64,000 nt of DNA from TPA_inf: Saccharomyces (lineage: Eukaryota): contig BK006942.2 in NCBI GenBank assembly GCA_000146045.2, forward strand, positions 1 to 64,000, in the 5' to 3' direction. Both the position numbers and the translations under genes were made by a program. Shown in pieces: positions 483 to 34,686 of the stretch. The notes beneath the pieces were generated by a model that saw nothing but the letters and a program-made list of their open reading frames with translations, was not told the origin of the DNA and ran no database searches. Within the stretch, counting starts at the first letter, position 1, and the number at the start of each line of letters is the position of its first letter.

Positions 483-3400
483 TCACTCTCCAACTTCTCT
501 GCTCGAATCCCTACATAATAATATATCAAATCTACCGTCTGGAACATCATCGCTATCCAGCTCTTTGTGAACCGCTACCATCAGCATGTACAGTGGTACC
601 CTCGTGTCATCTGCAGCGAGAACTTCAACGTTTGCCAAATCAAGCCAATGTGGTAACAACCACACCTCCGAAATCTGCTCCAAAAGATACTCCAGTTTCT
701 GCCGAAATGTTTTATTGTAGAACAGCCCTATCAGCATCGAGAGGAATGCCGTCCAATGCGGCACTTTAGATGGGGTAACTCCCAGCGCAATCTGATCTCG
801 CAAGTGCATTCCTAGACTTAATTCATATCTGCTCCTCAACTGTCGATGATGCCTGCTAAACTGCAGCTTGACGTACTGCGGACCCTGCAGTCCAGCGCTC
901 GTCATGGAACGCAAACGCTGAAAAACTCCACCTTTCTCGAGCGCTTCCACAACAACCGTATCGTCTTTTGCCTCCCATTCTTCCTGGCACTTTTTTTCGT
1001 CCCAGTTCAAAAAGTACTGCAGCACCTCTGTCTTCGATTCACGCAAGTTGCTCCATACTTTAAAATACAACTCTTTGATCTGCCTTCCAGACATGCGGAA
1101 AACTTGGCTCCCTTGCTTGCCTCTTGTCGAATCCAATACACTAATTGTTTCTCTTCTTCTAGTAATGGCCAGGTACCAAGCATAATTTCTCTGTATCTGA
1201 GAGTAGATCTCTCTCCTTTTTACGCTAAAATATTTCAAATATCCTACAGGGTCCCCATGATATGGCTCGATGTCTTCCAAGTATTCTTTGTATTCCTCGT
1301 CATTTCGCAGCATTCTCTCCACAGCTAGTGCTTCCCAAGCTATCCTCCGATACGATACTTTCTGGCCAGCCCAACAGACACAGAGCTCGAACATCTTTTG
1401 ACAGCCCTTGCATAATCCGTATTGTGTGAACACTCCCTCTGGGCAGAAGTATATGTCAATACCATAGAGGAAAAGATGTTTAATTTCGTCAGACCGAAAT
1501 CCAAGAAACTGTAAGACATTCATATTCTCGGAAGTATTGGGAAATTGTGCTTTCAGTTTCTTTCTCTCTAGCAAAACCATTTGACTCCCTTTCCGCTTAT
1601 ACGACTCTTTGTTAATGTCGGTGACTGGATGGAATCTATTATCCTCAGCATTGCCATCTTTATTGGCGTCCTCCTTGGCACTAGCGTTGGTACTTTCAGT
1701 GGTAGTAGCACTAGTGTTGGAGTTGGTACTTTCGGTGGTAGCAGCACTAGTGTTGGAGTTGGTACTTTCAGTGGTAGTAGCATTAGTGCTGGAGTTGGTA
1801 CTTTCAGTGGTAGTAGCATTAGTGCTGGAGTTGGTACTTTCAGTGGTAGTAGCATTAGTGTTGGAGTTGGTACTTTCAGTGGTAGTAGCATTAGTGCTAG
1901 AGTTGATACTTTTAGTGGTAGTAGCACTAGTCCTGACGTTGATGCTGGCAGTGGTAGTCGCACTAGTGCTGGAGTTGGTACTTTCAGTGGTAGTAGCACT
2001 AGTCCTGACGTTGATGCTGGCAGTGGTAGTAGCACTAGTGTTGGAGTTGGTACTTTCGGTGGTAGTAGCATTAGTGCTGGAGTTGGTACTTTCAGTGGTA
2101 GTCGCATTAGTGCTGGAGTTGGTACTTTCAGTGGTAGTAGCACTAGTCCTGACGTTGATGCTGGCAGTGGTAGTAGCACTAGTCCTGACGTTGGTGCTGG
2201 CAGTGGTAGTAGCATTAGTGCTGGAGTTGGTAGTCGCATTGGTACTGGCATTGGTGGTCGCATTAGTACTGGCATTGGTACTGGCATTGGTAGTCGCATT
2301 AGTACTAGCATTGGTAGTCGCATTAGTCCTGACGTTGGTACTAGCAGTGGTAATCGCATTAGTACTGGCGTTAGTACTGGCATTAGCACTACCATGAATG
2401 CACGTGTTGCTGTCCTCATCACTGCTGCAATACTTTCTGTACCTGTCACTGCTATTGCTCTCCTGGAAGCTAGACGGTAACGCAACGATCGACATGGAAG
2501 CTGTCGCCTGTTTTTCAGCCAATCTGTCCATTCTTTCTATCAGTTCCACTGTGTCAGCAGACAGGTCTGTCCTGGAGCCACAGCATCCAACATGCTGGCC
2601 CTTTTTTCCTTTCTTTGATTCAAGTCCATAGAACTCGCGTACCTGTTCGGTTATACAGCCTTCCTTAATCGGTGGTAATTCACCCTTACGATTCCTTGCC
2701 GCCCAACTGTTTTTTCTAGATAATAGATAACAGAGGCCCCCATCTCTTAGTCTCCCTACACCTTGAATGAGCTCAATAATATTAAGTCTATTATCAAGCA
2801 TGATCACCATCATCAATTGCTTAATGTCAATTCCTTCAGTCACTAATTTCGTTCCGATGAGAACTTGCATGCTACCGTCAGTGACAAACTCCTTTGTGCG
2901 AGACACCTTTTCTGCAGCACCCAGCTTCCCGTGTATCCATACCACCCTAAAATACTTTCTCCAAGAGCAGGCCAATTCTTCCACTTCGTTGGTTGTGCTT
3001 GCAACTACAATGGCCTTCGACTCTGGTTCACTTTCAAAGAGGGCTAAAAGAAGCTTCAGTGCTTCTTCGGGCTGTGATTCCACTTTCTTCCGAATTTTAT
3101 GAACATGCCCTAAAGGCACCTCGGATTTCTCCTTGATTAGATTAAACATCCGTGTTGGATAGCTGGATAGACCTCTGCTGAGATCTTCCGACCGTTTGAG
3201 CTCGTTGATGTCCATCGATTTCTTGGCCAGTCCCGTAAGCCCAATACGCTGCAACGCAGCATCAGCTACAGCCTCAGGGGCTGTGCCGCTCAAAAAGATT
3301 GCTTTCTCAAAAGCGTCAAAATCAAGGTTAGTTATGCCCCCAAATTGCGACTGCCGGTAGACCTCCGTTTCAAAGTTGTGAAACTCATCTACAATGAGGT

Positions 3401-6147
3401 AACCCAATTTTACGTTGTTGGTCCTAAAGGTGCACTCAACAATATTCTCCCACGCAGCTATCCTGTCTGTGAAATTAGTGCTAGCAAGATCATCGTAGAT
3501 CCCCACGTATAAATCAGTAACGCCATCGTAACCTTCTTCAATAAAGTTTCTTACAGGGGCCACATTCAAGCAACCGCATCGGCCCAACCTGATCATGCAA
3601 TTAGCAAGCAACACTGTGTACGGTACAAACAGAAACGACACATATTCCACGTCGCCCTTAGATGCCAGTGCTATCAAGGGGAGATGAAATAACTCCGTCT
3701 TACCATAGCCCGGTGGGGCCTGTACTGCCACAGAGGGTGTGTCTGCCATGTATATTTCATAACATAAGCGCAACTGATGCAAGTCCCTGAATTCAAAGGA
3801 GCTGCCAAAGAGTTTCTGGCCTGCGACGAGGATATCGTTTGTACTCTTGGGCTCTCGGGGCCTTTTTCGCGTTACTCTTGAAATTTTTTGATGATGATTT
3901 GAACTCGCCGCCTCACCTGCCACTACGTCTTCCGCATTCCGAGTACTGGAGAATGAACAATGGTAGTCGCTTTCAAGGCCTAACCACTGAATCCAGCGCT
4001 CGGAAGCTCGTTCCTGCAATAAAGTGGCGGTCGTCCCACTGACACTAGTTAACGAAAAGGAATCCACACCGTAAATATTTCGCCCTGTTTGAACGGAATG
4101 ATTGGCCATGAGTTCACTCGTCGCCGACTCGTACAAATCTGTTTCAAATCTGCTACCTACGCAGTGCCGTCCTAGGGCAATCAACCCCTGACGCATCTCC
4201 CGAAAATTCAGCTTCTGAGGTGCATTCTTCGGAAGTTCCCTCATGTACTGCCGAAAAGTTGCGTATTCAACCAGACAGCCCTTCGCGGTATTCAGAAACA
4301 TGTAGGAATACAAAACTATCCTCGAAATGTCTCGATTTGTTACTTGATTTGGATCCTCAAATCCCACCACATCCATCCAAGGATCATGATTAAAAGCGTC
4401 ATAACTGTTACCAAGCGCACATATTTGCATTTGCCTTAGCACAGTGACAAAATAAAACACGTAATCTGAGGTGAGTCCGTCAAGCGTCTTTAGTCGAGGC
4501 TCCGATGAACCGTTCTTGTTGTAATCAGTGTACAGTTGGATGCGTCTTGTTGTATCATCGACGTATACGTTGCGCTGAGGACCGGCAAAAGCGAGTAGCT
4601 GAAGCTCTGGATAACGGTAAGGGTATCCTACGGCAAAATGGATCATCCACATAAGTGGCACCGTAAGCTCGTCAATTGCAACAGCGACTTTATTTTTAAG
4701 AGCCGCGGTCATTTTGTTAGTATCTCTTCTCAACTTGGGCAGCACAATTTCACGATATTTAACAGGTATCATTTGAAGAAAAGAATCGTTTTCCAGATAC
4801 TCGTCAATTCCTCGCTTCGGTTCTCTGAACAAAACTTCTCGATTACGCAAAATGAGGTTGGCAATATCAACCACTGTAGGCATATAAAAGCAGTTGTTCA
4901 ACTCTCCCCAAAGGTTATCAAACTGAGCCTTGCATGCAAAGTAAAAGCCGCGGACATACTCGCGATTAAAAAAGTTTTCCACATACTGATATACCATCAG
5001 AAGAAGGTACCAAAGTTATTCTATAAGAGTCCTTCAGCGTGGTTTCCTGCGCTACTTCGTGGTACAGAATTTTGATCCATTTCCACATTGCAACGCCGTT
5101 GTTGTCATCAAATATATCTAAATCCCTTGCGGTACAAGCACAAGACGACACCAATAAAGCTTTCACGGCATCTAGTGTTTTTCTGAGTCTTCGTGGAGTG
5201 TTAGGACTGCGCAACTTACATACTTTCAGGCCATGCTCGTCCACAGAGGGAATAATGGGTTCTTCATTCGTAATAGATCGATCCTCTTCGTCACCAGCGC
5301 CACCACGGGGACCCGCCCCGAAATTGAGTGCACATGCTCGCAAGATAATATGCAAAATATCACCCAATCGGTCCTTTTTGTTCATCATATCGTTACATAT
5401 CTGTGAAAAGTACTTTATCTCAATGGGTTTACGTGGGCATAGATCACGCTTCAGCCGCTCTGTGTCGACTTTCTTTTCGCCAGGTAAACTTGCTTGGTAT
5501 GCAGAAAAAATCGATAGCTCATCTACGTGTAGTAACAAAAACATGTAGGGTGCCAAATTGTACCCATATTTCCTTATGGTGCTTTTCTGAAGACTCCTTA
5601 CAATAGGTGCGCCGGAAACAAAGTCAGTGAAAGTACGCATCGTAGAGCTGTCGTTCGGCCTAGCACTCGCTATTTCGTGACAACGTTCCAGGACACGGAA
5701 ACTCAACTCATTATAGTATCCTCTGTTGAGGTAAAAAAGAGAAAGGGTATCGTAATCCTTTCTATTGAATTTCAAAGTATGCACTTGAAACAACGTGTAG
5801 ACCATCAAGTTGATTTTCTTGGGAATAAGATACTTTGAAGGGATTGGTCCGCCCTGGAAATCTGGTTCGTCTTCAACAAACGTCAGGAACTTTTTTACAT
5901 TTTTCCCGACCATGACGGAAATGACAACTTTTTCAAAAGACCTTTTCCTATCCATTGCACCAGTTCTGAATTTTACCACTTTGATTAGGCCAGACTTTTC
6001 GTCTTCGTAGAATGACCGCACTTCCGTGGGGATCGATTCAAATAAAGTTATTGAGGGACAATGTACCAAGTCGTTTTTGTTATTTAGAGCCGACTCAAAC
6101 TCGTCAAAGTTTGCTTTTTCAAACTTACGCCTATCGGAAACTTTCAT
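483..6147 (-). CDS. YIL177C: Y' element ATP-dependent helicase, two exons: about 6147..4987 and about 4596..483, intron about 4986..4597
   Basis: Track ORFs 4966..6333(-) and 483..4997(-) overlap in different frames. The second (SFII helicase motifs GYGKT and DEFH, C-terminal Thr/Asn/Ser repeat) is the Y' helicase body. On the - strand GTATGT sits at 4986..4981 right where the first ORF ends, TACTAAC at 4722..4716, and an AG near 4597, giving a spliceable join. M at 6147 (MKVSDRRKF...) matches the usual Y' helicase N-terminus, so the 5' extension to 6333 is probably not used. Confidence 0.7.
1640..2400. repeat. 36-nt tandem repeat array (about 20 copies) inside the Y' helicase coding region
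   Basis: Unit ggtagtagcactagtgttggagttggtactttcagt repeats with point variants; on the - strand it encodes 12-aa [12 protein letters not shown]-type repeats in the helicase C-terminal part. All other frames of the array give artefactual repetitive ORFs. Confidence 0.85.
4597..4986 (-). other. Putative spliceosomal intron of the Y' helicase gene
   Basis: On - strand: 5' splice site GTATGT at 4986..4981, branchpoint TACTAAC at 4722..4716, candidate 3' AG at 4598..4597. Removing it fuses the two helicase ORFs in frame by my reading; the exact 3' site is uncertain by a few nt. Confidence 0.5.
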
Positions 6148-7514
6148 TTTATTTTTGTAAGTTTCGAAATTAACAATAGTATGTTGATTGTTATGCTTTT
6201 TGACAAGAAATCCATCAATATAAACAAAAGATTGTCCAGTTTCCGTCTTATCATCATCTAAGAATGTAATAATTAAGCTATTGAGAAGATGCAGAATCTG
6301 CGCTATGCAGGTGCAAATCTCTAGCAGCAGCAAAGAAAATTCAGTTAATAAGAAATCTCACTAAGATAAGCGACTGTCTGTCCCCTTCAAGCACAACATA
6401 GAAAACAGAAGGATGTCTCATTCATCGCTTGATTTCCGGCCTGCAAAAATAAAGTAGTCGGTACGTACGTTCGTTTTCAATTTCCATGGTGCACAGTATC
6501 TTAACTATCTGCTTAGTCGAGGAGAACCAGGATTCTGTTCGTTGCTCAGCCGCTTCGTGGATATTCTCTTGGATACTTTAAACATGGACCTACGCTTAGC
6601 CTGCGCTTAGCCTACAACTTCTTCCGCTATCGAAAAGACCAATATAATAAAAAGTTATAAATTACATTTCCTTATTAGGTATACGACCTCGCGCTTCGAA
6701 GTAAAGGAGCCCTTTTTGGCGTACCTACATATGGCGCGTCAGACAGACAACCTTCCCTCAAAATGTATTACCCCGCCGAATAAGAAAACAGACCCATTCA
6801 CCAACGACGTATCAAGTTACTTCCTTGATTTGCAATGTCCCACTATAAAAAAATTCCTTAACGCTAGATCTTTGGGCTAAAATCTGCGTCAAACAGGAAA
6901 TATTGCCTATTTTCGTACAAGGTTACTTCCTAGATGCTATATGTCCCTTTACATAATAAATTAAAAAATTTTTTTTATAAATTATAATAATTTCTTTTTA
7001 TTTCTAATAGTATCTTGGGATTAAATAAATCACTTACAATATTTATTTTATTATATTGCTTTGTTCAATTAAATTTTAATACGAAATTATTTAATTGTTT
7101 TGTATTTAAAATATTTTGAATAATAAAATAATATAGAGTTTTATTATAAATTTTTCATTGATATTTAATAAATAAAGATTTCCAGCATACAGCACATAAA
7201 ATATTAATTACATATGTAATTAATAATAAGGCCATATTTTGACCCTGCCATTACCCTACCATGCCCCATCTGTTACTCACTATACTGTTGTTCTACCCAA
7301 CATATTGAAATGTTAACAAATGATCGTAAATAATACACACATACTTACCCTACCACTCTAATCCCACCACCACATGCCACACTCACCCTCACTTGTATAC
7401 TGATATGCCATACGCACACGGATGCTACAGTATATACCATCTCAACTTACCCTACTCTCATATTCCACTCCACTCCACGGCCCATTCTCACTAAATCAGT
7501 ATAAATGCACTCAC

Positions 7515-19035: not shown

Positions 19036-19514
19036 TGCGAGTTATAAGTGCTTTTCTCGTGCATTTCCCTGACACTTCACAAAACCTTCTTTTTCTTTTT
19101 TCTTTATTTCAGGGGAAATCAGTGCAAAACTAAAAAGAAAGAAATTTTGTGAAATGTAAACTCCAGGTGTCAAAAAATAAATTATATCCGTGGAAAATCA
19201 GGCGTCGGAAATTGTAGATGAATCCGCCTCCTCCACAATAAAAATGCTGACCACACGAGCAATGCATACACTCGGACACCTTCGTTCAAAGTATCAGTAG
19301 CAGTTCGACACACCCTATACTACTTAGCTCTTAAGGTCTAGGCTCATCTTTCTCAGTTCCTCTTTTTCGCTAAATAAAGGTATATAATGTCACAGCTGTG
19401 TAACTAAAGAACACTGTTGTTCCTATCTTTTTCTTCTTCTTTTTTTGGTATGAGTTGGAAAAAATAATCATTGCACAATTGAGTACTAAAAGCTTTCGTA
19501 TCTTACCCAATATC

Positions 19515-21220
19515 ATGTCCGGTGTTAATAATACATCCGCAAATGATTTATCCACTACCGAGTCTAACTCTAACTCAGCAGTAGGCGCTCCTTCTGTTAA
19601 GACTGAGCACGGTGACTCCAAAGACTCCCTCAACCTTGATGCTACTGAAGCACCTATTGACTTACCTCAAAAACCCCTCTCTGCATATACCACCGTCGCA
19701 ATCCTATGTTTGATGATTGCATTTGGCGGTTTCATCTTTGGTTGGGATACCGGTACCATTTCTGGTTTTGTTAACCTTTCTGACTTTATCAGAAGGTTTG
19801 GTCAAAAAAAAACGACAAGGGGACTTACTACTTATCGAAAGTAAGAATGGGTTTGATTGTCTCAATATTCAACATTGGCTGCGCCATAGGCGGAATTGTC
19901 TTGTCAAAAGTCGGTGATATATATGGTCGTCGTATTGGATTGATTACAGTTACTGCCATTTACGTTGTAGGCATCCTAATCCAAATAACCTCCATAAACA
20001 AGTGGTACCAATACTTCATTGGAAGAATTATTTCTGGCATAGGAGTGGGAGGAATTGCTGTCCTTTCCCCAATGTTGATATCTGAAGTTGCTCCCAAACA
20101 TATCAGGGGAACCCTGGTCCAATTGTACCAGCTGATGGGTACGATGGGTATTTTTCTAGGTTACTGTACCAATTACGGTACCAAGAACTATCACAACGCC
20201 ACTCAATGGAGAGTCGGCCTTGGTCTTTGCTTTGCCTGGGCTACATTCATGGTTAGTGGGATGATGTTTGTACCAGAATCACCACGTTACCTGATCGAAG
20301 TTGGTAAAGATGAGGAAGCGAAACATTCACTATCGAAATCCAACAAAGTCTCAGTTGACGATCCAGCCTTGTTAGCAGAATATGACACTATAAAGGCGGG
20401 AATTGAAATTGAAAAGTTGGCAGGTAACGCATCATGGTCTGAACTACTCTCCACTAAAACAAAGGTCTTTCAGCGTGTTCTTATGGGAGTGATAATCCAA
20501 TCGCTGCAGCAATTAACCGGTGACAACTACTTCTTTTACTACGGTACCACCATCTTCAAATCTGTCGGTCTAAAGGACTCCTTTCAAACTTCGATCATCA
20601 TTGGTGTGGTCAATTTTTTCTCTTCATTCATAGCGGTATACACCATTGAGAGGTTTGGACGCCGTACGTGTCTATTGTGGGGTGCTGCTTCTATGCTGTG
20701 CTGCTTTGCTGTCTTTGCCTCCGTTGGTGTGACAAAGCTGTGGCCTCAAGGAAGCAGTCACCAAGACATTACTTCTCAGGGTGCCGGTAACTGTATGATT
20801 GTGTTTACTATGTTCTTCATCTTTTCGTTTGCCACCACCTGGGCGGGCGGCTGTTTCGTTATTGTGTCAGAGACGTTTCCTCTTAGAGCCAAATCAAGAG
20901 GAATGGCAATCGCAACAGCTGCAAACTGGATGTGGGGTTTCCTGATTAGTTTCTTTACCCCATTCATTACCGGGGCAATCAACTTTTACTACGGTTATGT
21001 ATTCTTAGGCTGTCTGGTTTTTGCATACTTTTATGTCTTTTTCTTTGTCCCAGAAACAAAAGGCTTGACGCTGGAAGAGGTAAATACTATGTGGCTGGAA
21101 GGTGTGCCAGCATGGAAATCGGCCTCATGGGTGCCACCGGAGAGAAGAACCGCAGATTACGATGCTGATGCAATAGATCATGACAATAGACCAATTTACA
21201 AGAGGTTCTTTTCCAGCTGA
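19515..21220 (+). pseudogene. HXT12: Hexose transporter family member disrupted by a frameshift in an A9 homopolymer (about 19804-19812)
   Basis: Track ORFs 19455..19844 and 19847..21220 are in different frames but together read as an HXT protein ([10 protein letters not shown]...FGQK | [16 protein letters not shown]...). The break lies in caaaaaaaaacgac, where HXT paralogs read [17 protein letters not shown]. The true start is the ATG at 19515; the track start at 19455 is a TTG. Confidence 0.8.
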
Positions 21221-23118
21221 TCTTCTAGTTTTCGGTAAATTGGTAAAAAAGCAAAAAAAAAAATTGACGAAACTAATTCTCTATTATACATAATGTTTTT
21301 ACTTTTGTACCCTTTAATTTCTAATGAATGTTTTATGGAAGCTTCAATAAATGCGTGACTGGCTATAGTTGTCGGATGGCAATCCATTATTATGTATACC
21401 GTATTATTAAGAGTGCAACTAGGCCCGACTATAAATCTAACACTCAGATCCTTGTACTGTAATGCATATTTATTTTTTCACAAGTTGCATGCTAATAATA
21501 CCATGATATTTTTTTTGAAGCCTTGAAAAATAGTTCAAGCAGCTACGATATCATGAATCAATATACTCATTGCAGCCTATGTAATATATATAGGTTCCGT
21601 GTTACCACTCGTTTCTGATATTTTCGATATGGCTACACTGGGTTTTTCATGATGGAAATGTGATACTACCAGTTCCAATATATTTATCTTCCTTATCTAT
21701 ATGACACGCTGTTATTTTAGTTCAAGTCAGTGTCCAATTGAAGTGAGTGTCACGTGCACAGCGACGGTAGTCGTTGGATGTGCTAAATGATGTTCTACTG
21801 CCAATGACTGCAAATACGTTCGAAGAGTATAAAATCGAAGGAAACGAATTAAGTTGCCAATCCTTACTGTAACTATAGCATGTTACATATATGTACCATA
21901 AGTATCACATTAAGGTTTCGCCATAGCCATGTGCCTATATTAAATAGAAATATCACATGGCGATCCACGGAATGTTTATAGATTTTCTTCTTTTGTCTAT
22001 GGCCCGGGCGAGACATTAATTTATCTTGCTGAAAAATTCGAAAGTTAAAACTCAATTATGCGTGGGATTTCTCAATTAGGTTACCAGAATTTCAATCTGC
22101 TGAAGAATTATGTCTTAAAAAAAAAAAGTCCCGCCTCAAAAAAGCCAAAAAGGGTGTGACTGTAGATTGTGGGTAACTTGCTGTCAAATGACATGAAAAT
22201 CTCTGCCTGCATGATCCCTGTCAAAATTCGAAAACACGCGGTCATAAAATTGTGCCTCAAAAAGATATCTTTTCTGCGGGTTCTCTTAGTAAATGAGGTT
22301 AGGTTGTTTCCTATTCTTACGAGATTTCCCTTGTTCTCGCCGCTCACATCATTGTCGGTAAGATCTTCCGTAGTGGCAGGTCAAGCAGTGAGGAAGAAAG
22401 ATCGGCAGTAAACTGATAAGAGCCAAACCGAAAAGTTTCTTATACGCAAAAACGCTTTGAAAATTCTCCAAGAATCCTATTTGAAACTCTTATTAATAAA
22501 TAAAGTATAAATATAATAAAGTTTATTGTGAGACATGTCGCGATAAGCACCCCTTGTCTTTCTTGGAAGGGAGAAATTTGTAATATAAAGCCAAGTGCTC
22601 AGAACTCGATTTTTTTCTGACCAAAGAGCGGAAGCTCCACTATAAAAGTTGGGAGGTACTTTTAGGTTCTCTTAAGTTCGCATTTAATTATGGCCTGAAC
22701 GATTTTACTGTGGACAATAAGTGAAATAAGTGTCCTTAAAATGTGTACGATGTGTACACATCAACCTACTCTCCCCTTCATTGGCAGAAGAGGGAACCAT
22801 TTCATCCAAAAAAAATAAAAAAATAAAAAAAATCCAAATATTAAGCTAAAAAAATACTTAACTGTTTACACAAAGCGTATATAAAATGCATATTAAGAAC
22901 CTATCTCGTTTCAGAGGAATAAACTTTTAATTCCTCAGTTAAAAAAATTAGTTAAAGAAAGCAAGAACGAAAATACCGACCAATGCATTCAAAGTATTGG
23001 CATTCAAACCTGCGGCAATACCCTCGGACTGGACAATGATACCAGTAGAGGTCTTTATTGGAGCTGCAGATTTGGAGTATGTGGGAAATTGCACTAGAAG
23101 CCTTGGAAATGGCAGTAG

Positions 23119-26106
23119 TCAATGAGGTTGCTTTAGAACCCTCAGAAGTGACAGTAGTGTATGACTTTGGAGAAGCACTAGTTGCGTGACGGTTGAAGTA
23201 GCTTCAGGTATTTTAGAGGTGATTATCTTGACGTTACAACCATTGTCATCACCATTGAGTAACCAGTGGCAGTAGTGTATGTCCTTAGGGGCAGCACTGG
23301 TTTCTGAAGTTTCTGAAGTTTCTTTAGGAGCTTCAGAAGTGACAGTCTTGGTGCTACATCCATTGTCATCGCACTGAGTAACAGTAGCGGTGGTGTATGT
23401 CTTTGGAGAAACAGTAGTGGTTGTGGCTTCAGGGGCCTCAGAGGTGACAGTCTTAGTGTTACAGCCGTTGTCGTCACAGTGAGTAACGGTAACAGTAGTG
23501 TATGATTTTGGAGAAGTAGTAGTTGCTGAAGTTTCTTCAGGACATTCAGAAGTGACAGTCTTGGTGCTACATCCATTGTCATCACACTGAGTAACAGTAG
23601 CGGTGGTGTATGTCTTTGGAGAAACAGTAGTGGTTGTGGCTTCAGGAGCTTCAGAAGTGACAGTCTTGGTCTTACATCCATTGTCATCACAGTGGGTGAC
23701 GGTGGCAGTGGTGTACGATTGAGAAGAAACAGTAGTTGTGGTGGTAGCTTCAGGAGCTTCAGAGGTGACAGTCTTGGTGTTACAGCCATTGTCGTCACAG
23801 TGGGTTACGGTGACAGTGGTGTATGATTTTGGAGAAGCAGTTGTTGCTGATGTTTCTTTGGAACATTCAGAAGTGACAGTCTTGGTGTTACAGCCATTAT
23901 CGTCACAGTGAGTTACAGTGGCAGTTGTGTATGATTTGGAAGAAACGGTTTCAGTTACAACAGCACCGGTTGATGTACTAACGTGACATCCAGTTTCATC
24001 ACAAGAAGTAATAGTGGCGGTAGTGGATGAGCATGGAACGGTTGTGGTAATGGTATAGACGTTACCATTGGAGTCAGTTGTCTCTGAACAAGAAACTACG
24101 ACTGTGCTTGTGGCATTTACATAGTCTAGTGTTGTAGTGTAAACAGATGTTGAACCGGTAACGGAAGCACCAAATGAAGTGGAAGCAGTTGAACCGGTAA
24201 CGGAAGCACCGAATGAAGTGGAAGCAGTTGAACCGGTAACGGAAGCACCGAATGAAGTAGAACCGGTAACGGAAGCGGAAGCACCAGATGCAGTGGATGA
24301 AGAAGCGGCACTAGTAGCGACAACACCATTGTAGTTTAGGTAGTAAGCGTAAGCACCTGCAAAGATTCCTTCAGAGACGCTGAAGTCAGAGCTGGAGAAT
24401 CCGGTACCAATAGCAAAAGAGAATTGTCTGTTACCTTGGGTTGCAGTTAGAACACCGGTAGTACCGTCATAAGAAAGAGCAGTGATGTCAGCGGTAATGG
24501 CAATTTGGTTCTTACCAGTGTAGCCAACAACAGGAATAGGAGTGGCATTGGTTTCGGTTGGGTCAACAGCAAGGACACCTTCACCCTTGAATACAACAGT
24601 TTGGCCAGTAAATGTGTCAGGGTAGTGTAAGTATAGGTTACCGGAAATGATGTTGACTGTACCTTTTCCAGAAACTGGTTCGACAATAACATAGGTACTT
24701 CCATTGTCTAGGTTAATTTCACCGTTGTTTACTGAACCTTCAGTGTCGTCTCTACGTTGTAGACCGGAAACAGAACCACCGTTGAGAATAGCGTTCGAGA
24801 AAGAGAAGGCACCAGAATTGGAGTATGGAGAGAAAGTGACTTCACCCTTCTTGGACTTTGATAGACTTAAGGAAATGTCACCACTGTTGTCAAAAGAACT
24901 TGGAGTGAAGGAGTAGATGGATGCAGAGGTGGCAGCGGATTCTTCAGCGTTGAAGTTACCGGTCACGTCAAAGTTTTCACCGGAGATGTCGAATTCGGTA
25001 CCTGGATAGGTTTCTTTGGACTTTTTCACAAGCAAGTCACCGTAGACTTTTAGGTCAGCTGAGAAAGAATATTTGTCACCGTCAAGTAGAGTCAATTTGG
25101 CACCAGCTGCGACCACAACACCTTCTGTTGCAATTACTTTACCAGTAAGAGTTAGATCACCACTGATTGTAGTAGTTGGTAGATAGATAGTACCATCGCT
25201 GGAAGAAAGGGAGTTGGAAGCAGTTGCGCTTGCACTAGATGCTGAAGAAGTAATGGAACTCAAGGAATTGGAAGTGGCAGAACCGGAGGCAGTAGAAGCG
25301 GATGAGGTTGATTGAGGGAATGAGCTTGAGCTACCAGAAGCGGATGAGACTGATTGGCTGCCAGAGCTTGAGACACCAGAAGTAGAGGAAGCTGATTGAC
25401 TGACAGAGCTTGAGACATCAGAAGTAGAGGAAGCTGATTGACTGACAGAGCTTGAGACATCAGAAGCTGAGGAAGAAGATTGACTGACAGAGCTTGATAC
25501 ATCAGAAGCTGAAGAAGAAGATTGACTGACAGAGCTTGAGACATCAGAAGTAGAGGAAGCTGATTGACTGACAGAGCTTGAGACATCAGAAGCTGAGGAA
25601 GCTGATTGACTGACAGAGCTTGAGACATCAGAAGCTGAGGAAGAAGATTGACTGACAGAGCTTGATACATCAGAAGCTGAAGAAGAAGATTGACTGACAG
25701 AGCTTGAGACATCAGAAGTAGAGGAAGCTGATTGACTGACAGAGCTTGAGACATCAGAAGCTGAAGAAGAAGATTGACTGACAGAGCTTGATACATCAGA
25801 AACGGATGAAGAGGATTGGCTGACAGAGCTTGAGACAACAGAGGAAGAGGATGGACCGACAGAGCTCGAGACACCAGAAGTGGATGAAGCTGATTGTGTG
25901 ATAGAACTTAAGATATCGGTAGCGGACGAGGATGTCTCAGCAATAGAACTACTGATCGAAACGGATCCAGAGGAACTTGATACCACAGAGGTGGATGAGC
26001 TGTTGCTTGAAATTGAGGTGCTATTGCTATAGTACTGACCCAATGCACTTTGAGAGTAAAGGGCCAAAGCTAAAGCAGCTTGGAATTTGTTTAAACGATT
26101 GAACAT
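23119..26106 (-). CDS. YIL169C: Ser/Thr-rich secreted/cell-wall glycoprotein of the HPF1 family, 995 aa, with two internal tandem-repeat families
   Basis: ATG at 26106..26104 gives [23 protein letters not shown]... (signal peptide); the track start at 26115 is a TTG. It has a Ser-rich N-terminal half with 14-aa repeats, a central region of about 300 aa, and a C-terminal half of about 39-aa Cys-containing repeats ([31 protein letters not shown]). Confidence 0.8.
23230..23960. repeat. Coding tandem repeats of about 117 nt (about 6 copies) encoding Cys-containing Thr-rich units in the YIL169C C-terminal half
   Basis: Recurring ...acagtcttggtgttacagccattgtcgtcacagtgagtaac... blocks; protein repeat xYTTxTVTxCDDNGCxTKTVTSExPExT. 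Confidence 0.75.
25330..25900. repeat. 42-nt coding tandem repeats (about 12 copies) encoding [14 protein letters not shown] units in YIL169C
   Basis: Unit gctgattgactgacagagcttgagacatcagaagtagaggaa repeats with variants. Confidence 0.8.
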
Positions 26107-29031
26107 CTCTTTCAATTAGGCGAGATCTTACCAAATTTGCAATGATGAGGCTTGCTGTTTCTAAATTTACTCGAAATAAAAACAACACATACTGTCCAAA
26201 ACCCCCCATAGCAATGAATCAAGACAAAGCCTTTTATATCATTGTAGGCGCTGTTGCAGTTATTTGTGGGCTTCCGATATGTAATTACTGAAAGGACTGT
26301 TGAGCTAGATCGATTTTTTGTACGGCAATTCCACAGGACTCTTCAAAGCCTGCGAGGTCTATGCGCGCGCGTTTGGTAAGTAGGAAATTGGGTAGTAATT
26401 TTATGCAAACGCAATGGTTGCCGTGAATAACAACACGATCCCTTTAATATTATACGAAAACGTGCAGAACGGCACAAACCAATAGGCTATGACCAAAATG
26501 GTTCATGAGAAAGAACCAGGAGTATTATGAGTAGTAACCCAATTTTTTTTTGAGACTTACGCTACTTTCGCTCAATCCAACACGAGCAATTACAGTAATC
26601 CGTACTCAAAATGAGCCGTTTGGACTCACTACAGGATCATATACGATTAAAAGATAGAAATAGGCATCTCCCGCCTTTGGAGCAAAAAAAAATGGTGGTT
26701 GCTCTTGGTCGCGAAGTGAATCTTCAACATTGCTGAGGGGACGGCTGCCTGACTTCACTGTGACGCGAACGCGATAATTTTTGCGTTAGCGAGTGGCTAG
26801 TAAGTCCCTTCAAAAGCCACTCCCTGTAAAATACCGCACCTTCCGGGTTGCTTTCATAATCAAACAAAGTTTAGGACTCCTCCCAAGACTCGTCCCTTGG
26901 CAAAAAAAATTAAGCACCTAACTAAAGAAACTTTTGCCATTTTTTTCCTAAAATAATTTGAAATGCCACCCAATTTGCAAACATGATTCATGGATCTTGG
27001 AATTATCATATTATTTAACGTTATTTGCACCTATCCACGAGAGAAAGCAAGGAACATAATTCCGTGCGCCGATATTCCAAATCTTTCCGAAAAAAATTCT
27101 CTAGCGGATTCATATAACCCGCTAGATAAGCCATATATTACTAATTGCCTTTCGTGTCTATTTGCCTGAGGATTTTAGACTACAGGGGTTATTTTCTTTT
27201 TTTTTGAGGATGATGAGGATGATGATAATAATCAGTGTCCGAGTTACACTCAATGAAAAACTTTTGGTGCAATTACGGGAGTAAAGAGTTTTCTTGACTT
27301 TTTGTCATGAATTTTTAGTGGCTTGTTTACAAGTTCAAAAGCAGGCATTCGCTTCGAAAGGACTGAACCTTGGTCTTCTGCGACAGCAATTTCTTTTCGT
27401 AATACCTTATATCATGTCCTGTCTTGAATTGTAGTTTTAAGGCGGGCATTATTTTGCTGAAATGGAATTTTGATAGCGGTAGTTCGATCATATGGCAATG
27501 CAGTACGATTTGTATATCGAGGCATATGCGTGTTGTTTCTACACACATCTAAAATATGTTTAGCTACTCCGTCGATAGAGTTGCGTATCATAAGTTATTT
27601 TGACAGCATCTCATTGTAATTTTACGTTACACCTTCTCTCTGGATGTAGTTCCAGGAGCTTGAGGCGACCTCATCAACTAAAGAAGTTGGTCAGAAGAAG
27701 GATAATGCACCATCAAGTATTTGCTATAGTCCGGTATGTCATCAAATGTCGAATGTTCCCCGTCAGGGTATTTTCTTCTAGAGAATACTTTTCTTTGGTG
27801 TCTCTGTAGCTTTCGGTTGGGTAAAAGGGTATTACTTCTTACTTCCACTGAAGGCTAGAATAACACGCAGGACTGAAAGGTGAAATGGCCTGTCTTGTGC
27901 TCTCTTCATTTTATTTTTTATTAGCAGAACATCCTGCTGTGATGAAATTTTATGGTCAACTTCTTTTACGATGACACCCTTTCTTGCACTTCCTTTAGGA
28001 CACTGAATTGGGATGCCACACGTACAAATTTGTCTTCTATGTGCGGAAATTAGAAACCATCCATTTACTTAATGTAATATTTCATTGTCTGCAAAAATTT
28101 GTTTGTGGTGTTATCTTAACAACTTAAAAAATTCTTCCTTATGCAGTGGAAACTTTTAATGACATGTGGTACACTTTTTAAAGGTTTACATGAAGTTTAC
28201 CATGCCTCTTCTTTTTTTTTATGTCTTGCTTGTAACGCAGTTGTAATTACTTGCTGTTATATCTCGAGCTTCCACCTATATTGCTTTCAACACAAAGAAC
28301 CTTTTGACGGTCTTGGGCTAGCTCCTATTTTTGGACCCTTGCCCATCACAGAACTATGAGAAAAGCAGTACGTCTTGACTTTAGTGCATGCTGTACATCC
28401 TAGACTGTAACTGATTCTTCACAGACCTTGCCACATAAAACTACAGATATCCCCGTTTTCTTGGTTTACGGTTGGCATACCTTCAAAATATTAACAGTCA
28501 ACTATTAAACGAATGATGCCCTACCTTATTTACATTCTTTATATATATATATATATAGCATTAGTTTACAAATACCGTACATGCCATTCACCTTGACACA
28601 CCCATAACGGTAATTCAAATCAAATCGTCATCGTTTGGGCGGAATCATATCCTCAAATTCTTGACATTGCATAGCGTAGTATATATGGTATTAAGAAAGC
28701 TCGTACAGCATAAGATATCAGGTTCTTTCTTTGAACATTATCGAACGCTGTTAGCCTCTTGTAGTATTTCCCCATTGGGCTAAACGGCAATGTCCTTATC
28801 GTAGTTAGAATATGGAAAAATTACATAATTTCGAAACTGGAAATGATGCTAGATAAAAGTGGAAGATTACTAAGCGTAGTATATTAGCCGGAAAGAATTC
28901 ATATATAGTCATGAAGACATTTTGAAAAAATTACATTTATAGAAGTTTATTATAACGTAACAGTTAACAACAAAGGCTCATAGTCCGAGATCAATATAAT
29001 AAATTATTCAAGGTTTAAGGAAGAAGTTACC

Positions 29032-30048
29032 ATGGAAATGACTTACTATGAAAAGACACCTTTGATTCGTCAATTTTTGAACAATGGTAAGACAAATTCG
29101 TGGTTTTACGTTAAGCATGAGATGTTACAACCAGGTGGAAGTTTCAAATCGAGAGGAATCGGGCATTTGATAAGGAAGAGTAATGAAGAAGCGCTAAGCG
29201 AGGGTTCTGGGAAGCTTGCTGTATTTTCTAGCTCTGGGGGAAATGCTGGTTTAGCAGCAGCAACTGCCTGCAGATCGATGGCACTTAATTGCAGTGTAGT
29301 GGTTCCTAAAACTACAAAACCTAGAATGGTAAAGAAAATTCAAAGTGCAGGAGCCAAAGTCATTATCCATGGTGATCATTGGGGGGAAGCAGATGAATAC
29401 TTGAGGCACGAATGAATGGCGCAAGAAAGCCAACATGGTTCGAAGACACTATATGTGCACCCGTTTGATAACGAGACAATTTGGGAAGGTCATTCTACGA
29501 TTGTGGATGAAATCATAGAACAATTGAAGGAAAATGATATATCCTTACCTAGGGTGAAAGCTTTGGTTTGTAGTGTTGGTGGTGGTGGGCTATTTAGTGG
29601 CATAATTAAAGGCCTAGATAGGAATCAGCTTGCTGAAAAAATTCCGGTCGTTGCTGTAGAAACTGCCGGTTGTGACGTATTGAATAAGTCTCTCAAAAAA
29701 GGTAGTCCAGTTACTCTTGAAAAATTGACAAGTGTTGCAACTTCTTTGGCCTCCCCATACATAGCATCATTCGCGTTTGAGAGTTTTAACAAGTATGGAT
29801 GTAAGTCTGTAGTTTTATCAGATCAAGACGTTCTGGCAACATGCTTGAGATATGCCGATGACTACAATTTTATAGTGGAACCAGCCTGTGGAGCATCCTT
29901 ACATTTATGTTATCATCCAGAGATTCTTGAAGACATTCTGGAACAAAAAATATATGAGGATGATATCGTTATTATAATCGCATGCGGTGGATCATGTATG
30001 ACGTATGAAGACTTGGTGAAAGCGTCGAGCACATTAAACGTATCATAA
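29032..30048 (+). pseudogene. SDL1: L-serine/threonine dehydratase (PLP-dependent) interrupted by an in-frame TGA at 29413-29415
   Basis: Track ORFs 29032..29415 and 29416..30048 are in the same frame (CAC GAA TGA ATG GCG) and together form one PLP-dependent serine dehydratase (FKSRGIGH lysine motif, GGGG loop). Confidence 0.8.
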
Positions 30049-30937
30049 TTTTCAAATACACACGCGATCTTAGAGCAATAGAAATGGATCGCGATCTATC
30101 TATGTACGTTCGGACTTATTAAGATGTGTTTCATTTTTTTTCGTTCTAGTCTTTTTATTGGATGGTGGTCTGGAAATTCAATCTACTGATACTACAGTAT
30201 TAAAGCAATTAAGCACCTAGGATGAAGCTCCTGCAAGTAGCTTGGTAGATGAGAAATGTTAAGCGGATAGTAACGCTGAAGCTATGCTATGCCATAATAA
30301 TTTATAAAAAAATCAATAAAAAAGAGTGTATATTGATATTACTAATATGTAGAAGAAAGAATTAACTAGTATAATTCGGAGAGTAGTAAAGAAAATTTTA
30401 TTTACATATGAATGTAGAAATTAATTCTACGATTCACGCGGAATATTGTGAAATCTTGAGATAAGAAAGTTGCAAGAGATCACAAATGAAGGTTATCTGC
30501 AAACAGCATAAACAGATGACACCTTATGAATGTAAGGTAACATCGGTAGCTTAGCGCGTTGACCTGTGAGCTCCTACATAGAATATTTGTGTGCTTGGGG
30601 ATTATTTGAGAAGCATTAGGCTGGTTCAGAGGAATATTTACAATTGGTCATTGTATTTTGATATCAATTACCGAAGATTTTGGTGTTATTATGTTCAAAA
30701 ACTTTTTTTTGTTTCCGTGAACACACAATTGCTGTCACCTGCTTTTGTGGTATAGCAGTGCAAAACTACTAAAAAGCAATAACATCCCATGACCTTTACC
30801 TTAAAAACTCGAAAAAAAAAAGTTTTTGCATTAACCTTTTGTTGCTCTGGTGTAATAATTTTTTTTGATGTATGACTTCTCGCTTTTGCGTGTAGCATTA
30901 CTCTAACAGCAAAAATTTTAATACACGAAAACTTAAT

Positions 30938-32566
30938 CTAGTGAATAAACCTATAATCAAGACGCTTCATTCCCTTATCTTTAGTTGTGTCCAAGTAATT
31001 GATCTGCTCTTCTTTTGTCATAGAGTTCCATTTGCGGTCCTTGTATTTATTCCTACTAATATAGTAAAACTTAGTAGCAACAGCCATACAAATGTTGAAG
31101 CAAGTGAATCCTAGAAGTATTTTGTTACCTCTAGTATAGTAAGGTTTATCATCATTTCTATACATGTTAGAAGCAATGATTGCTCCAACTTGGGCACTCA
31201 TATTGTATAACGCTGTGCCCACTGTACGCGATCTTACCGAATTTGAAATCTCGGAGACCCAACCAGCAAGAATGGAATGTGTATAGGGAAGACCAAGTAT
31301 ACCGGTTAGTAATATATACTTGATCCAGGGGTTTGTGTCAGTCGGTAAAGCGACCAGAGAAACTATGAAAGGGAGCACCCAAACGTTGGCAATTCCCACA
31401 CAAAGTGATTTTTCTTTCAATTTACGCGATAATAGTGCCGCTAATGGTAAATTTATTAGCAGCAGGGCTTGGCCTGGAATTGCTAAAATGTTCGAAAGAA
31501 ATGTAGAGTAATTTAAACTCTTTAATATCAAAGATAAATAGGAACCAACTGTTTGAAGAGATATGAATGCTGTAATACCTTGGATAAACAATGGCCATAG
31601 ATCAAATTCTGTTAGAGTGTACAAAATCTCCTTGAAGGTAACTGGTTGTCGGTTACTCATGTCACCCTTTGATGGGTCATCCCTTAAAATTCTGTTAACC
31701 ATAATTTTCTCCTCATACTCAGTGAATAACGATTTTCCTTTGTGAAATGCAGACTCACCAGTTTGCGTAGGTCCTCTACGCATTAAATAAAAGGATGCCA
31801 CGCCAACAGAAAGGGACAGAAACCCTTCAATTATAAATAGGTACTGCCAGCCAGCTAAGTTATGAATACCCCTCATCTCTATGATTCCGGAAGCTAAAAG
31901 AGAGCCTAAAATTTGGAAAAGAGGTATAGCACACCAAAAGAAACTTAGGCGGAATGTGAGCTCAGCTCCAGTATAATAATATGACAAGTATAGAATATTG
32001 TCCGGGATGAACCCGCCCTGTACCATTCCTAATAAGCATCTAGTAGCAATAAATTGACCTCGATTTTTCAGACCAGCTTGAGTAATACAAATTACACTCC
32101 ACAACACAATTTGAACCGGAATGACCCTTTCTGGACCAAATCTTTTGGACAGCAGATTGCCGGGTAGTTCACTTGCTAGAAATATAACTAGATAAACAGT
32201 TTGGCCAAGGTTGTAGTCGTTCGTGTTCATTTTCAAGTCAACAATGAAGTTGTCTGAAACTGCCCTTGCAATATTTTTCCTTATTAAATCCAAAAAGGCA
32301 AACATAATAAAAACCCACAAAAAAATCTTCAAGTCCATTTTTCTTACCAATTTCTTTTCCTCATCCTTTGTCCATGTAAACTCAGGATCGAATTTAGACA
32401 AGCCTTCATAACCACTGGATTCATAGACTTTTCTCCAACGCTCTGCTTTATGAAAATCGTCAAATGGGTTATGTGAAATACTCTCCGAATCTGATGTTAA
32501 GCTTTCTGCGGACACAGATAATTGGGCCTTTTCTACAATATCGTATTCTTCTTTTTGTACGGACAT
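30938..32566 (-). CDS. SOA1: MFS transporter of the Dal5/allantoate permease family (sulfonate/sulfite transporter), 542 aa
   Basis: ATG-initiated 542-aa ORF with about 12 predicted TM helices and Dal5-family similarity. Confidence 0.75.
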   Translation of the reverse strand: MSVQKEEYDIVEKAQLSVSAESLTSDSESISHNPFDDFHKAERWRKVYESSGYEGLSKFDPEFTWTKDEEKKLVRKMDLKIFLWVFIMFAFLDLIRKNIARAVSDNFIVDLKMNTNDYNLGQTVYLVIFLASELPGNLLSKRFGPERVIPVQIVLWSVICITQAGLKNRGQFIATRCLLGMVQGGFIPDNILYLSYYYTGAELTFRLSFFWCAIPLFQILGSLLASGIIEMRGIHNLAGWQYLFIIEGFLSLSVGVASFYLMRRGPTQTGESAFHKGKSLFTEYEEKIMVNRILRDDPSKGDMSNRQPVTFKEILYTLTEFDLWPLFIQGITAFISLQTVGSYLSLILKSLNYSTFLSNILAIPGQALLLINLPLAALLSRKLKEKSLCVGIANVWVLPFIVSLVALPTDTNPWIKYILLTGILGLPYTHSILAGWVSEISNSVRSRTVGTALYNMSAQVGAIIASNMYRNDDKPYYTRGNKILLGFTCFNICMAVATKFYYISRNKYKDRKWNSMTKEEQINYLDTTKDKGMKRLDYRFIH

Positions 32567-33717
32567 AGATGAAACTTTGTTTGTTGATTGAATTTTTTAT
32601 TAATTGTTTGTACAATAAATAATTTCAATAATCAACAATTGAACGCTGCCTTTTTATACTAAATGATTCAGTAGAAGACGAACCTAGCGCAGGGAATACG
32701 TCATGTATTTGATAGTAAGCGCCAAACCTATTAGGCAATAAAGTGTGACAAATTGGTAGCATTGATAGTTATTCCCAATTGACCCATAGGCTGTTGAAAT
32801 GAAACCATCAGTATATGTTGAAACCTCAAGTGAGGCGTCAACCTCTAAGTGAGGCTTCAAGCTTCGCCAACTATTATATATGCCACATGACTGCAGGGTC
32901 CTTATTTTAAGGAGCTAGCTGCAACGACTTTGTGCTGTAAAGGGGTGCAGCAGCAAATGTAGCCTATTTGCTCGAGGTTTTTCTTTCTTACGAGAATGCT
33001 AGCAATTCAAGATAGTACGTTGTAATATGATGCATTTCGGCACAATTATCCGAGAAACGGACTATTTCGGGATTATATCGATCCGAAATTCTCTGCGTCG
33101 AGCCGAATGCCAAGGAAAAAAGTTCAGAGAATGACTACAAACAGCCTTGGCGACGGCAAAAGTAAGCTTGGTAAGAATGGCTTGATCCACACGGTGATTC
33201 TTGTATCGGGTCAATGCATAATTTTGATTGTGAAAGGCGCAATTATTAAGGCTGCATTCTTTAGCTTGTCTTGACTCCTACCCGTCATCGTACAATCTCC
33301 ACATTAAAAAATATCACGACATTTATAAATCTTCTTCACACCGGATTAAACAAAAAAACTGTGTTAATCGGATCCGGGAGAAAATGCTAATATCTCCTTC
33401 TTGTTTGTGAAATGATGATAACTGGGCTGTTGAACGAAAATGAAACTTCTCAAATACACCTATTTATTAATAAATGTTAATTTATATTTTAAAAAAAGGT
33501 AAAAATTAAATGATCAGGTTTGCGATCCTGATTTCAAAATCATGGCTTGGATTATATCTTAGAGACGTATGGATTTCAAACAAATGCCTATTTGATTGAA
33601 TATTACAGATCTACATTATCTCTTGTACATAAAACATTATATAACAGACATATTGATATTAACGAATATTTTCGAGCCACCATTCATGAAAGCCTAGTTA
33701 ATGGATTTATGCGGTAT

Positions 33718-34686
33718 TCATTTCGTAAACTTGACATCGTGTGACCTTTCATTGACAGTCAACTGGAAGACATCTCCCCTAGCATAATGTCCGACAGGGT
33801 CAAGATCAAAGCGAGCTTCAGCAATCAAGTCAGTGTTAATTTCGGCGGTTAAAAGGCCCTCCTGCCCTAGCAATGGCCCTGCAATAATCTCTCCATAAGG
33901 ATCAATAATAACACTACCTCCATTAATACAGTTGTCGTCAGCAGATGGCCATCCAGGTAATTTTCTCTTACCTGTAGCTTGGTCAATAATCTCCCCAAAG
34001 CCCATTGCTGTCGCATCTGGCATGAACTGCACTGCACTAATCAAGAATAGACGACCTTCGTATGCAATATTTTTCATCACAGTCCTCTAAATAGGCCTAG
34101 CATCCACCGTTGGGGCACACCAGATCTCAACCCCTTTTTTATACATGGCGTATCTCAGTAGAGGCATCATGTTCTCCCAGCAGATAGCACCGCCAATCTT
34201 CCCAGCAGCGGTATCCACGACAGGCAGAGTCGAACCATCGCCTTGACCCCATATCAGTCTTTCGCCAGCTGTCGGCATCAGTTTTCGATGCTTCCCAACG
34301 TAGCCATCTTTAGGATCTATATAAACCATGGTACAATATAATGTCGTCCCATCGCGCTCTATACACCCCACACATAAGGATGCGTCGGTGGCCTTCGATA
34401 GTGCGCACAACTGACTAATTTCTGGATATTTCTCTCCGTTTCCGATCTCAATTGCTTCGGCAAGATACTTAGCATACTCCTCCCTTCCTTCTTGAAGACG
34501 GTAGCCTAGATAAACCCCAAAGTTCGATCCCTTTGGATAACCACCAAGAGTGGCTTCTGGGATAACGACCAACTTGGCACCAGATTCCTTGATCTCCTTC
34601 TCATATGACAAAATTTTTTTCAAGGTATCCTTAGTAGAGCCCGGACAAGAGCCGATTTGAAGGGCAGCAACAATGTGTTTCGCCAT
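33718..34686 (-). pseudogene. NIT1: Nitrilase-superfamily gene interrupted by an in-frame TAG (34089..34087)
   Basis: ORFs 34087..34686(-) ([22 protein letters not shown]...[10 protein letters not shown]...[13 protein letters not shown], the catalytic Cys region) and 33718..34080(-) are in the same frame, separated by TAG plus two codons; the downstream ORF's first M is really GTG. Together they make a full-length nitrilase. Confidence 0.8.

Follow-up and report, generated by a model that had tools for sequence, protein, structure and literature searches.

Disabling lesions in HXT12, SDL1, and NIT1 near the left end of chromosome IX of Saccharomyces cerevisiae S288C

Disabled reading frames at yeast chromosome ends

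Adjacent open reading frames (ORFs) that correspond to successive portions of the same protein and are split by a single stop codon or frameshift were described in Saccharomyces cerevisiae S288C as disabled ORFs or "blocked reading frames" (Harrison et al. 2002, J Mol Biol 316:409, as cited in PMC1657058). Insofar as that work is cited there, the named pairs YIL171W/YIL170W, YIL168W/YIL167W, and YIL164C/YIL165C are the very loci considered here, namely, those of the hexose transporter gene HXT12, the serine dehydratase gene SDL1, and the nitrilase gene NIT1. All three lie in the window that we analyzed, a 64,000-nucleotide stretch (positions 1 to 64,000 of contig BK006942.2, assembly GCA_000146045.2) that is the left end of S288C chromosome IX, with C1-3A telomere repeats at its start. 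They are built in the same way, and nothing about them differs in kind from the disabled ORFs already described. The three breaks indeed belong to the standard annotation of the reference, and experiments have been done on two of them: both nonsense pairs were investigated by name (PMC1657058, PMC5303821) and treated as disabled ORFs in the first of these studies, and SDL1 and NIT1 were reported to be inactivated by nonsense mutations in S288C but intact in EC1118 (Holt et al. 2017, PMC5303821).

The second relevant precedent comes from the pseudogenes at the chromosome ends of hemiascomycetes. In S. cerevisiae, 71% of the pseudogenes are found no more than 30 kb from a chromosome end, versus 5.4% of the active genes, and the same gene has often been disabled repeatedly near chromosome ends (Lafontaine and Dujon 2010, PMC2876123). 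The present locus resembles these cases in comprising a transporter and two metabolic enzymes 20 to 34 kb from the left telomere of chromosome IX, with some lesions shared among strains and with repeated disabling. Most of the subtelomeric pseudogenes in that study derive from species-specific duplicates, which fits HXT12, a member of the HXT9/11/12 group; unlike such duplicates, SDL1 and NIT1 are single copy at the locus and lie inside the core gene order of the species. The last core gene, and hence the core boundary, of this chromosome arm is CSS1, and HXT12 is present in 56 of 93 strains (PMC12157680); by that boundary, HXT12 is the only one of the three that falls outside the core gene set. 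Three of the five consecutive genes HXT12, CSS1, SDL1, SOA1, and NIT1 are disabled, a proportion that is far above the genome-wide rate yet typical of this chromosome-end compartment.

An earlier note on the window, made from the sequence alone, had described the three genes as independently inactivated by small and recent-looking lesions and had attributed these to relaxed selection and gene turnover in subtelomeres. On the basis of the comparisons below, we conclude that these are very probably ordinary loss-of-function alleles, segregating within the species and affecting dispensable, condition-specific genes near a chromosome end, that happened to become fixed together in the S288C lineage. 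Direct reading of the sequence places each lesion at the position given in that note, and its gene assignments are borne out by all six fragments, each of which is an exact match to the corresponding S288C reference protein. Four of these, those of SDL1 and HXT12, carry the UniProt label "PUTATIVE PSEUDOGENE." Each gene has a single disabling lesion, and the remainder of its frame is open, with no other stop or frameshift, as had been claimed. Moreover, one Pfam domain extends across the break in each of the three genes, and the joined proteins can be aligned with intact homologs over their whole length.

Three different lesions in otherwise open frames

For comparison, protein searches recovered full-length versions of the three genes from sister species as well as from other strains of S. 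cerevisiae, and the flanking DNA was then compared (the compared loci are denoted by L numbers). The 5' fragment of HXT12, YIL171W (19515 to 19844, plus strand; UniProt "Putative transporter-like protein YIL171W"), runs from the ATG at 19515 to the TAA at 19842 to 19844 and comprises 109 codons and a stop in the shifted frame. It covers positions 1 to 39 of the Sugar_tr profile (PF00083), and the 3' fragment, YIL170W (19847 to 21220, plus strand; 457 amino acids [aa]; UniProt "Putative hexose transporter 12"), covers positions 48 to 452 of 452, placing the two in the HXT9/11/12 group of the sugar porter family. The downstream ORF is in the -1/+2 frame and is open back to 19811, with the transporter sequence unbroken there, and the site of the frameshift is a run of nine A's (A9) at 19804 to 19812 (plus strand). 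In the window allele, translation ends 10 codons past the slip, leaving most of the 12-helix transporter domain unmade. Once repaired, the protein shares 97% identity with a cluster containing proteins named Hxt11p.

Among 12 other alleles of HXT12, the run is A7 in eight, six of which are fully intact syntenic copies, A8 in three, and A9 in one (L020); A9 is also carried by L004 and L048 to L055. Because the syntenic intact alleles carry A7, these sequence comparisons settle the direction of the lesion as a +2 insertion relative to an ancestral A7. The earlier note had spoken of a +2/-1 slip, of which the first part stands and the second does not: a -1 deletion from an ancestral A10 is ruled out, as no A10 allele was seen and all of the intact alleles are A7.

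The S288C-type HXT12 has four missense changes of its own (L175I, R270H, M326I, and V458A) and no synonymous change of its own. These missense changes are missing from the other alleles, except that I175 is common to L048. The ratio of nonsynonymous to synonymous changes (4:0) differs from that among the remaining differences (7:46) by a one-sided Fisher test (p = 8e-4), and this pattern is what a gene drifting after inactivation would look like. Furthermore, the A9 run is found on HXT haplotypes that are 8 to 57 substitutions apart, as well as on other chromosome-sized contigs. Because of these haplotypes, the other contigs, and the four missense changes, the description of the HXT12 lesion as recent was too strong.

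In SDL1, the break reads "cac gaa TGA atg gcg," and the two halves share one frame. The N-terminal fragment, YIL168W (29032 to 29415, plus strand; UniProt P0CF21), encodes 127 aa followed by the TGA at 29413 to 29415 (plus strand); it contains the SFKSRG motif with the lysine that binds pyridoxal phosphate (PLP) and aligns to rat L-serine dehydratase (1pwe). The C-terminal fragment, YIL167W (29416 to 30048, plus strand; 210 aa; UniProt "Putative truncated L-serine dehydratase SDL1"), contains the glycine-rich loop SVGGGGL. The PALP domain (PF00291) spans residues 6 to 319 of the joined protein, which matches 1pwe with an E value of 2e-50, and both motifs (residues 37 to 42 and 181 to 187, respectively) align to the rat enzyme. 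The stop derives from TTA (Leu128), the codon present in L001 to L003 and L012 to L017; leucine occupies this position in the intact S. cerevisiae alleles, in an S. paradoxus-like allele, and in S. kudriavzevii. Fold-type II PLP enzymes have the PLP lysine and the glycine-rich loop on one polypeptide, an arrangement found in the intact allele and absent from the window. Because the TGA separates the lysine in the N-terminal half from the cofactor loop in the C-terminal half, neither half is predicted to hold the full active site or to be capable of acting as an enzyme.

The SDL1 stop has transcript-level consequences of the kind expected of a classical premature stop: the UGA in YIL168W triggers nonsense-mediated mRNA decay (NMD), with an mRNA half-life of 1.1 min, versus 5.2 min without NMD, and conversion of the UGA to a sense codon stabilizes the mRNA and abolishes the effect (PMC1657058). 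Apart from the stop, six missense and six synonymous codons separate the S288C allele from the intact allele of L001 to L003, and one of the missense differences is G240A, at a position that is glycine in every full-length homolog aligned. The L128* change is found on three haplotypes. Because of these haplotypes and the six missense differences, "recent" is too strong a description for SDL1, too. A separate observation concerns a Logan-derived protein of 211 aa (P0014; MNGARKQHGSK...), which starts at an ATG overlapping the SDL1 TGA and, six codons later, returns to the SDL1 frame (29412 to 29470); this implies that either one more base pair is deleted near 29430 in the read set concerned or the assembly is in error.

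The break in NIT1 reads "cct att TAG agg act gtg atg" on the minus strand, with the TAG at 34089 to 34087, and again the halves share one frame. YIL164C (34087 to 34686, minus strand), the N-terminal fragment, encodes 199 aa followed by the TAG, includes Glu44, Lys135, and Cys169, and is an exact match to NIT1_YEAST/NP_012102.1. The in-frame continuation (33718 to 34086, minus strand) is annotated as YIL165C, a 119-aa product starting from the ATG at 34077, and is an exact match to "Putative nitrilase-like protein YIL165C." The stop (34087 to 34089, minus strand) derives from TGG (Trp200), which is the codon in L001 to L003 and L012 to L016, and tryptophan is invariant at this position in an alignment reaching Pseudomonas nitrilases. 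The Glu44-Lys135-Cys169 triad is likewise invariant in the alignment and lies entirely in the first fragment; in the comparison with Arabidopsis thaliana NIT4 (6i00; E = 7e-80), Cys169 aligns to NIT4 residue 197. The CN_hydrolase domain (PF00795) spans residues 6 to 292 of the joined protein. The window allele ends at residue 199 and loses the last 123 residues of this single-domain fold, so that the triad sits inside a complete CN-hydrolase domain in the intact allele and not in that of S288C, and the S288C protein is predicted to be inactive.

For NIT1, the description of the lesion as recent holds, in that the closest intact allele is only 2 nucleotides from that of the window, one of these being the stop. 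W200* occurs on six slightly different haplotypes. Independently of the lesion, the joined protein shares 57 to 60% identity across its entire length with nitrilases from Pseudomonas, Dickeya, and other proteobacteria, a match as close as that to many non-Saccharomyces yeasts; NIT1 has been described as looking like a transfer from proteobacteria (Holt et al. 2017, PMC5303821).

Taken together, the truncated single-domain folds, along with the published NMD data for SDL1, suggest that no functional Hxt12, Sdl1, or Nit1 protein is made from these alleles. The hallmarks of disabled ORFs are present in each case: the fragments are consecutive parts of one family, there is an uninterrupted syntenic ortholog, and the lesion is real.

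Intact and disabled alleles in other strains

The loci L001 to L003, L012, and L013 have the same gene order as the window, IMA-HXT-CSS1-SDL1-SOA1-NIT1-SUC2, with an intact HXT of 567 aa, an SDL1 of 336 to 338 aa, and a NIT1 of 322 aa. Intact SDL1 and NIT1 in other strains, which the earlier note had mentioned, were thus recovered directly, in agreement with Holt et al. 2017 (PMC5303821). At the other extreme, L004/L053 (GCA_030292175.1) is identical to the window in all three genes, and the same lesions are present in the independent NCBI assemblies of L036 (GCA_000269885.1), L049, L054, and L055, as well as in Logan assemblies of separate read sets (L005 to L011). Besides L004 and L036, these independent sources include eight contigs from Logan or NCBI. 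Comparison of the lesion sites across strains thus yields both the intact A7, TTA, and TGG alleles and the very lesions of S288C.

Between these extremes, the lesions occur in differing combinations. In L018, HXT12 is intact, SDL1 carries the stop R81*, and NIT1 carries W200*; L020 has A9 in HXT12 together with R81* and W200*; L015 has A8 in HXT12 with both SDL1 and NIT1 intact; and L043 has R81* in SDL1 with an intact NIT1. That the lesions are three different mutations and are differently combined in L018, L015, and L043 bears out the claim of their independence.

Several further null alleles were found for each gene. In HXT12, they include A8 (L015, L019, and L021), accompanied in L019 by a G4-to-G5 slip, an in-frame 141-bp deletion (L016), and an insertion (L022). 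In SDL1, there are R81* (AGA to TGA), a +T frameshift at nucleotide 919, and the loss of the 5' half of the gene (L039), and in NIT1 there are +1 slips of two kinds, A7 to A8 (L023 to L027) and A6 to A7 (L016). Even SOA1, which is intact in the window, is disabled elsewhere by a stop at codon 299 (L023) or by a frameshift (L037). Homopolymer runs account for most of the frameshifts at this locus, as replication slippage would lead one to expect. The presence of several independent nulls per gene, extending to the neighboring SOA1, upholds the view that selection is relaxed and gene turnover is ongoing near this chromosome end. As a separate observation, the 3' end of SOA1 is altered or shortened in L028, L038, and L045.

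Origin and persistence of the null alleles

Each allele arose by a commonplace mutation: two extra A's in the A7 run of HXT12, as expected from homopolymer replication slippage; a T-to-G transversion converting TTA (Leu128) to TGA in SDL1; and a G-to-A transition converting TGG (Trp200) to TAG in NIT1. On the preferred interpretation, their persistence would reflect weak selection, as HXT12 has near-identical paralogs and SDL1 has the paralog CHA1; for NIT1, we know of no substrate for which it is required. Because selection on the three genes would be weak, null alleles may arise repeatedly and then drift, which is the usual behavior of genes near yeast chromosome ends.

Certain points weigh against this interpretation. 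The weakness of selection is itself deduced from the diversity of alleles, and recurrent nulls would also be expected if loss were favored. The assemblies sampled are public and nonrandom, with laboratory strains overrepresented, and no allele frequencies can be derived from them. SDL1 is broken in all 10 of the NIT1 W200* haplotypes sampled, by three different lesions, which hinted at a coupling of the two genes. Finally, the transcript consequences of the NIT1 lesion are not fully explained by its stop, because the mRNA remained NMD sensitive after the UAG had been converted to a sense codon; in this, NIT1 is unlike a classical NMD-triggering nonsense allele, and another feature, possibly an upstream ORF, contributes (PMC1657058). 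As for the coupling, a scenario of initial NIT1 loss followed by repeated decay of SDL1 is ruled out, for the R81*, +T frameshift, and 5' deletion alleles of SDL1 occur together with an intact NIT1 (L043, L038, L045, and L039).

The best surviving alternative, albeit an unlikely one, is that inactivation of at least one of these genes was favored, for instance, in rich laboratory or fermentation media. Consistent with such adaptive loss, there are at least three independent nulls each for HXT12, SDL1, and NIT1 and some for SOA1, and the S288C stops occur on multiple haplotypes, six for W200* and three for L128*. The exact truncated proteins are also recorded on 134 to 286 contigs, but these counts are inflated by the resequencing of laboratory strains and were not used as frequencies. 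Intact alleles of all three genes are, however, common in the same collections, and every combination of intact and broken genes occurs except W200* with an intact SDL1. Recurrent nulls near chromosome ends are moreover the neutral expectation (PMC2876123), and nothing in the data requires that loss was adaptive.

A9 copies probably on other chromosome ends

The A run of HXT12 raises a further possibility, by analogy to bacterial contingency loci, that in the HXT9/11/12 group it might be a recurrent and possibly reversible on/off site, the off state of which may be copied between chromosome ends by recombination. We regard this as slightly less likely than adaptive loss. Its starting point is the distribution of the run: alleles with A7, A8, and A9 are spread over HXT haplotypes separated by as many as 57 substitutions. 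In L048, L050, and L051 (contigs of 1.05 to 1.08 Mb) and in L052 (749 kb), an A9-frameshifted HXT gene is part of a VTH-IMA-HXT block, about 12 kb long and 98.5 to 99.4% identical to the window at 11.5 to 23.7 kb; identity drops to about 80% in the adjoining CSS1/HPF1-like gene. These copies are probably on other chromosomes, and it appears that whole chromosome-end blocks, pseudogene included, have moved between chromosome ends. Recurrent slippage and a single origin of A9 followed by gene conversion both fit the data. No reversion of the run was seen among the alleles compared.

Recoding and sequencing errors

It is very unlikely that the breaks are bypassed by recoding, making the genes "pseudo-pseudogenes," with HXT12 expressed by -1 frameshifting or transcriptional slippage and SDL1 and NIT1 expressed by readthrough, for example, in [PSI+] cells, or, for SDL1, by reinitiation. 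The HXT12 site does resemble programmed -1 frameshift sites in that its upstream frame reads CAA AAA AAA ACG, so that the A9 run provides a slippery heptamer, A_AAA_AAA, in register, from which a -1 shift leads into the downstream HXT12 frame. It is unlike them in having no downstream structure beyond chance, as the 100 nucleotides following the run fold no better than shuffled sequences (z = -0.87; 41 of 200 shuffles were as good), and in that the run varies among strains, with A7 in the intact alleles and A8 in others, which marks a polymorphic lesion rather than a conserved signal. Because of these two features, we reject a programmed -1 frameshift at this site. In addition, the missense changes accumulated by the S288C gene are those expected of a dead gene.

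For SDL1, the ATG directly 3' of the TGA would permit reinitiation, but a C-terminal half made in this way would lack the PLP lysine, and the UGA is recognized as premature and triggers NMD (PMC1657058). The features of programmed readthrough, a conserved stop and a favoring 3' context, are absent from both nonsense sites. Most other alleles have TTA and TGG in place of the SDL1 and NIT1 stops, respectively. A stop-CAR-NBA context is said, after Namy and coworkers in 2001, to favor readthrough in yeast; the contexts here are TGA-ATG-GCG and TAG-AGG-ACT, in both of which the stop is followed by A and neither of which matches it.

Errors in the reference, which the earlier note had named as the finding that would overturn it, can be dismissed with near certainty: although homopolymer runs are error prone in some sequencing technologies, the identical lesions recur in independent NCBI assemblies and Logan read sets, and both nonsense ORF pairs have been cloned, with the TAG and TGA themselves mutated (Guan et al. 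2006, PMC1657058).

Gene layout and neighboring features

The ORFs of the window are, in order, those of a Y' helicase, a sortilin-like protein (1,549 aa), an alpha-glucosidase (589 aa), the split hexose transporter, a Ser/Thr-rich repeat protein, the split serine dehydratase, a major facilitator superfamily (MFS) transporter (542 aa), the split nitrilase, and invertase. The MFS transporter between SDL1 and NIT1 is SOA1 (YIL166C; 30938 to 32566, minus strand), an intact 542-aa ORF identified as a sulfonate/sulfur transporter in PMC5303821. The Ser/Thr-rich protein, CSS1/YIL169C (23119 to 26115, minus strand), contains two large arrays of tandem repeats, one with periods of 42/84/126 bp and the other with periods of 108/213/321 bp; its product ranges from about 660 to 1,107 aa among strains, with one additional gene call of 1,680 aa, indicating variation in repeat number. 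By the telomere, the Y'-element helicase gene (483 to 6333, minus strand) consists of two long overlapping ORFs in different frames (483 to 4997 and 4966 to 6333), a split that is presumably consistent with the annotated intron of YIL177C. No tRNA genes were found in the 64,000-nucleotide window.

Other strains differ from the window in the content of this region. Distal to SDL1/SOA1 in L014 (1 to 3200), L039 (15000 to 20600), and L052 (15596 to 16330), there are genes for a PhyH-family protein, a class III aminotransferase, and a histidine phosphatase, all of which are absent from the window, and in L014, HXT12 and CSS1 are missing from their usual position. In L033 (5790 to 6818; GCA_947370585.1), an aminoglycoside phosphotransferase (APH) gene occupies the SUC2 site; this looks like a drug marker replacement in an engineered strain.

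Implications

The additions made here to what was already known of these loci are small: the +2 direction of the HXT12 slip, the ancestral codons of SDL1 and NIT1, a list of other null alleles, and evidence for a greater age of the HXT12 lesion than its appearance suggests. In practical terms, S288C-derived strains lack Hxt12, Sdl1, and Nit1, and for this reason studies of serine catabolism, of nitrile metabolism, and of the SDL1-SOA1-NIT1 genes must draw their alleles from other strains, the course taken by Holt et al. 2017. Beyond such confirmation the finding matters little, with the locus serving as a compact example of the repeated and independent decay of genes near yeast chromosome ends.

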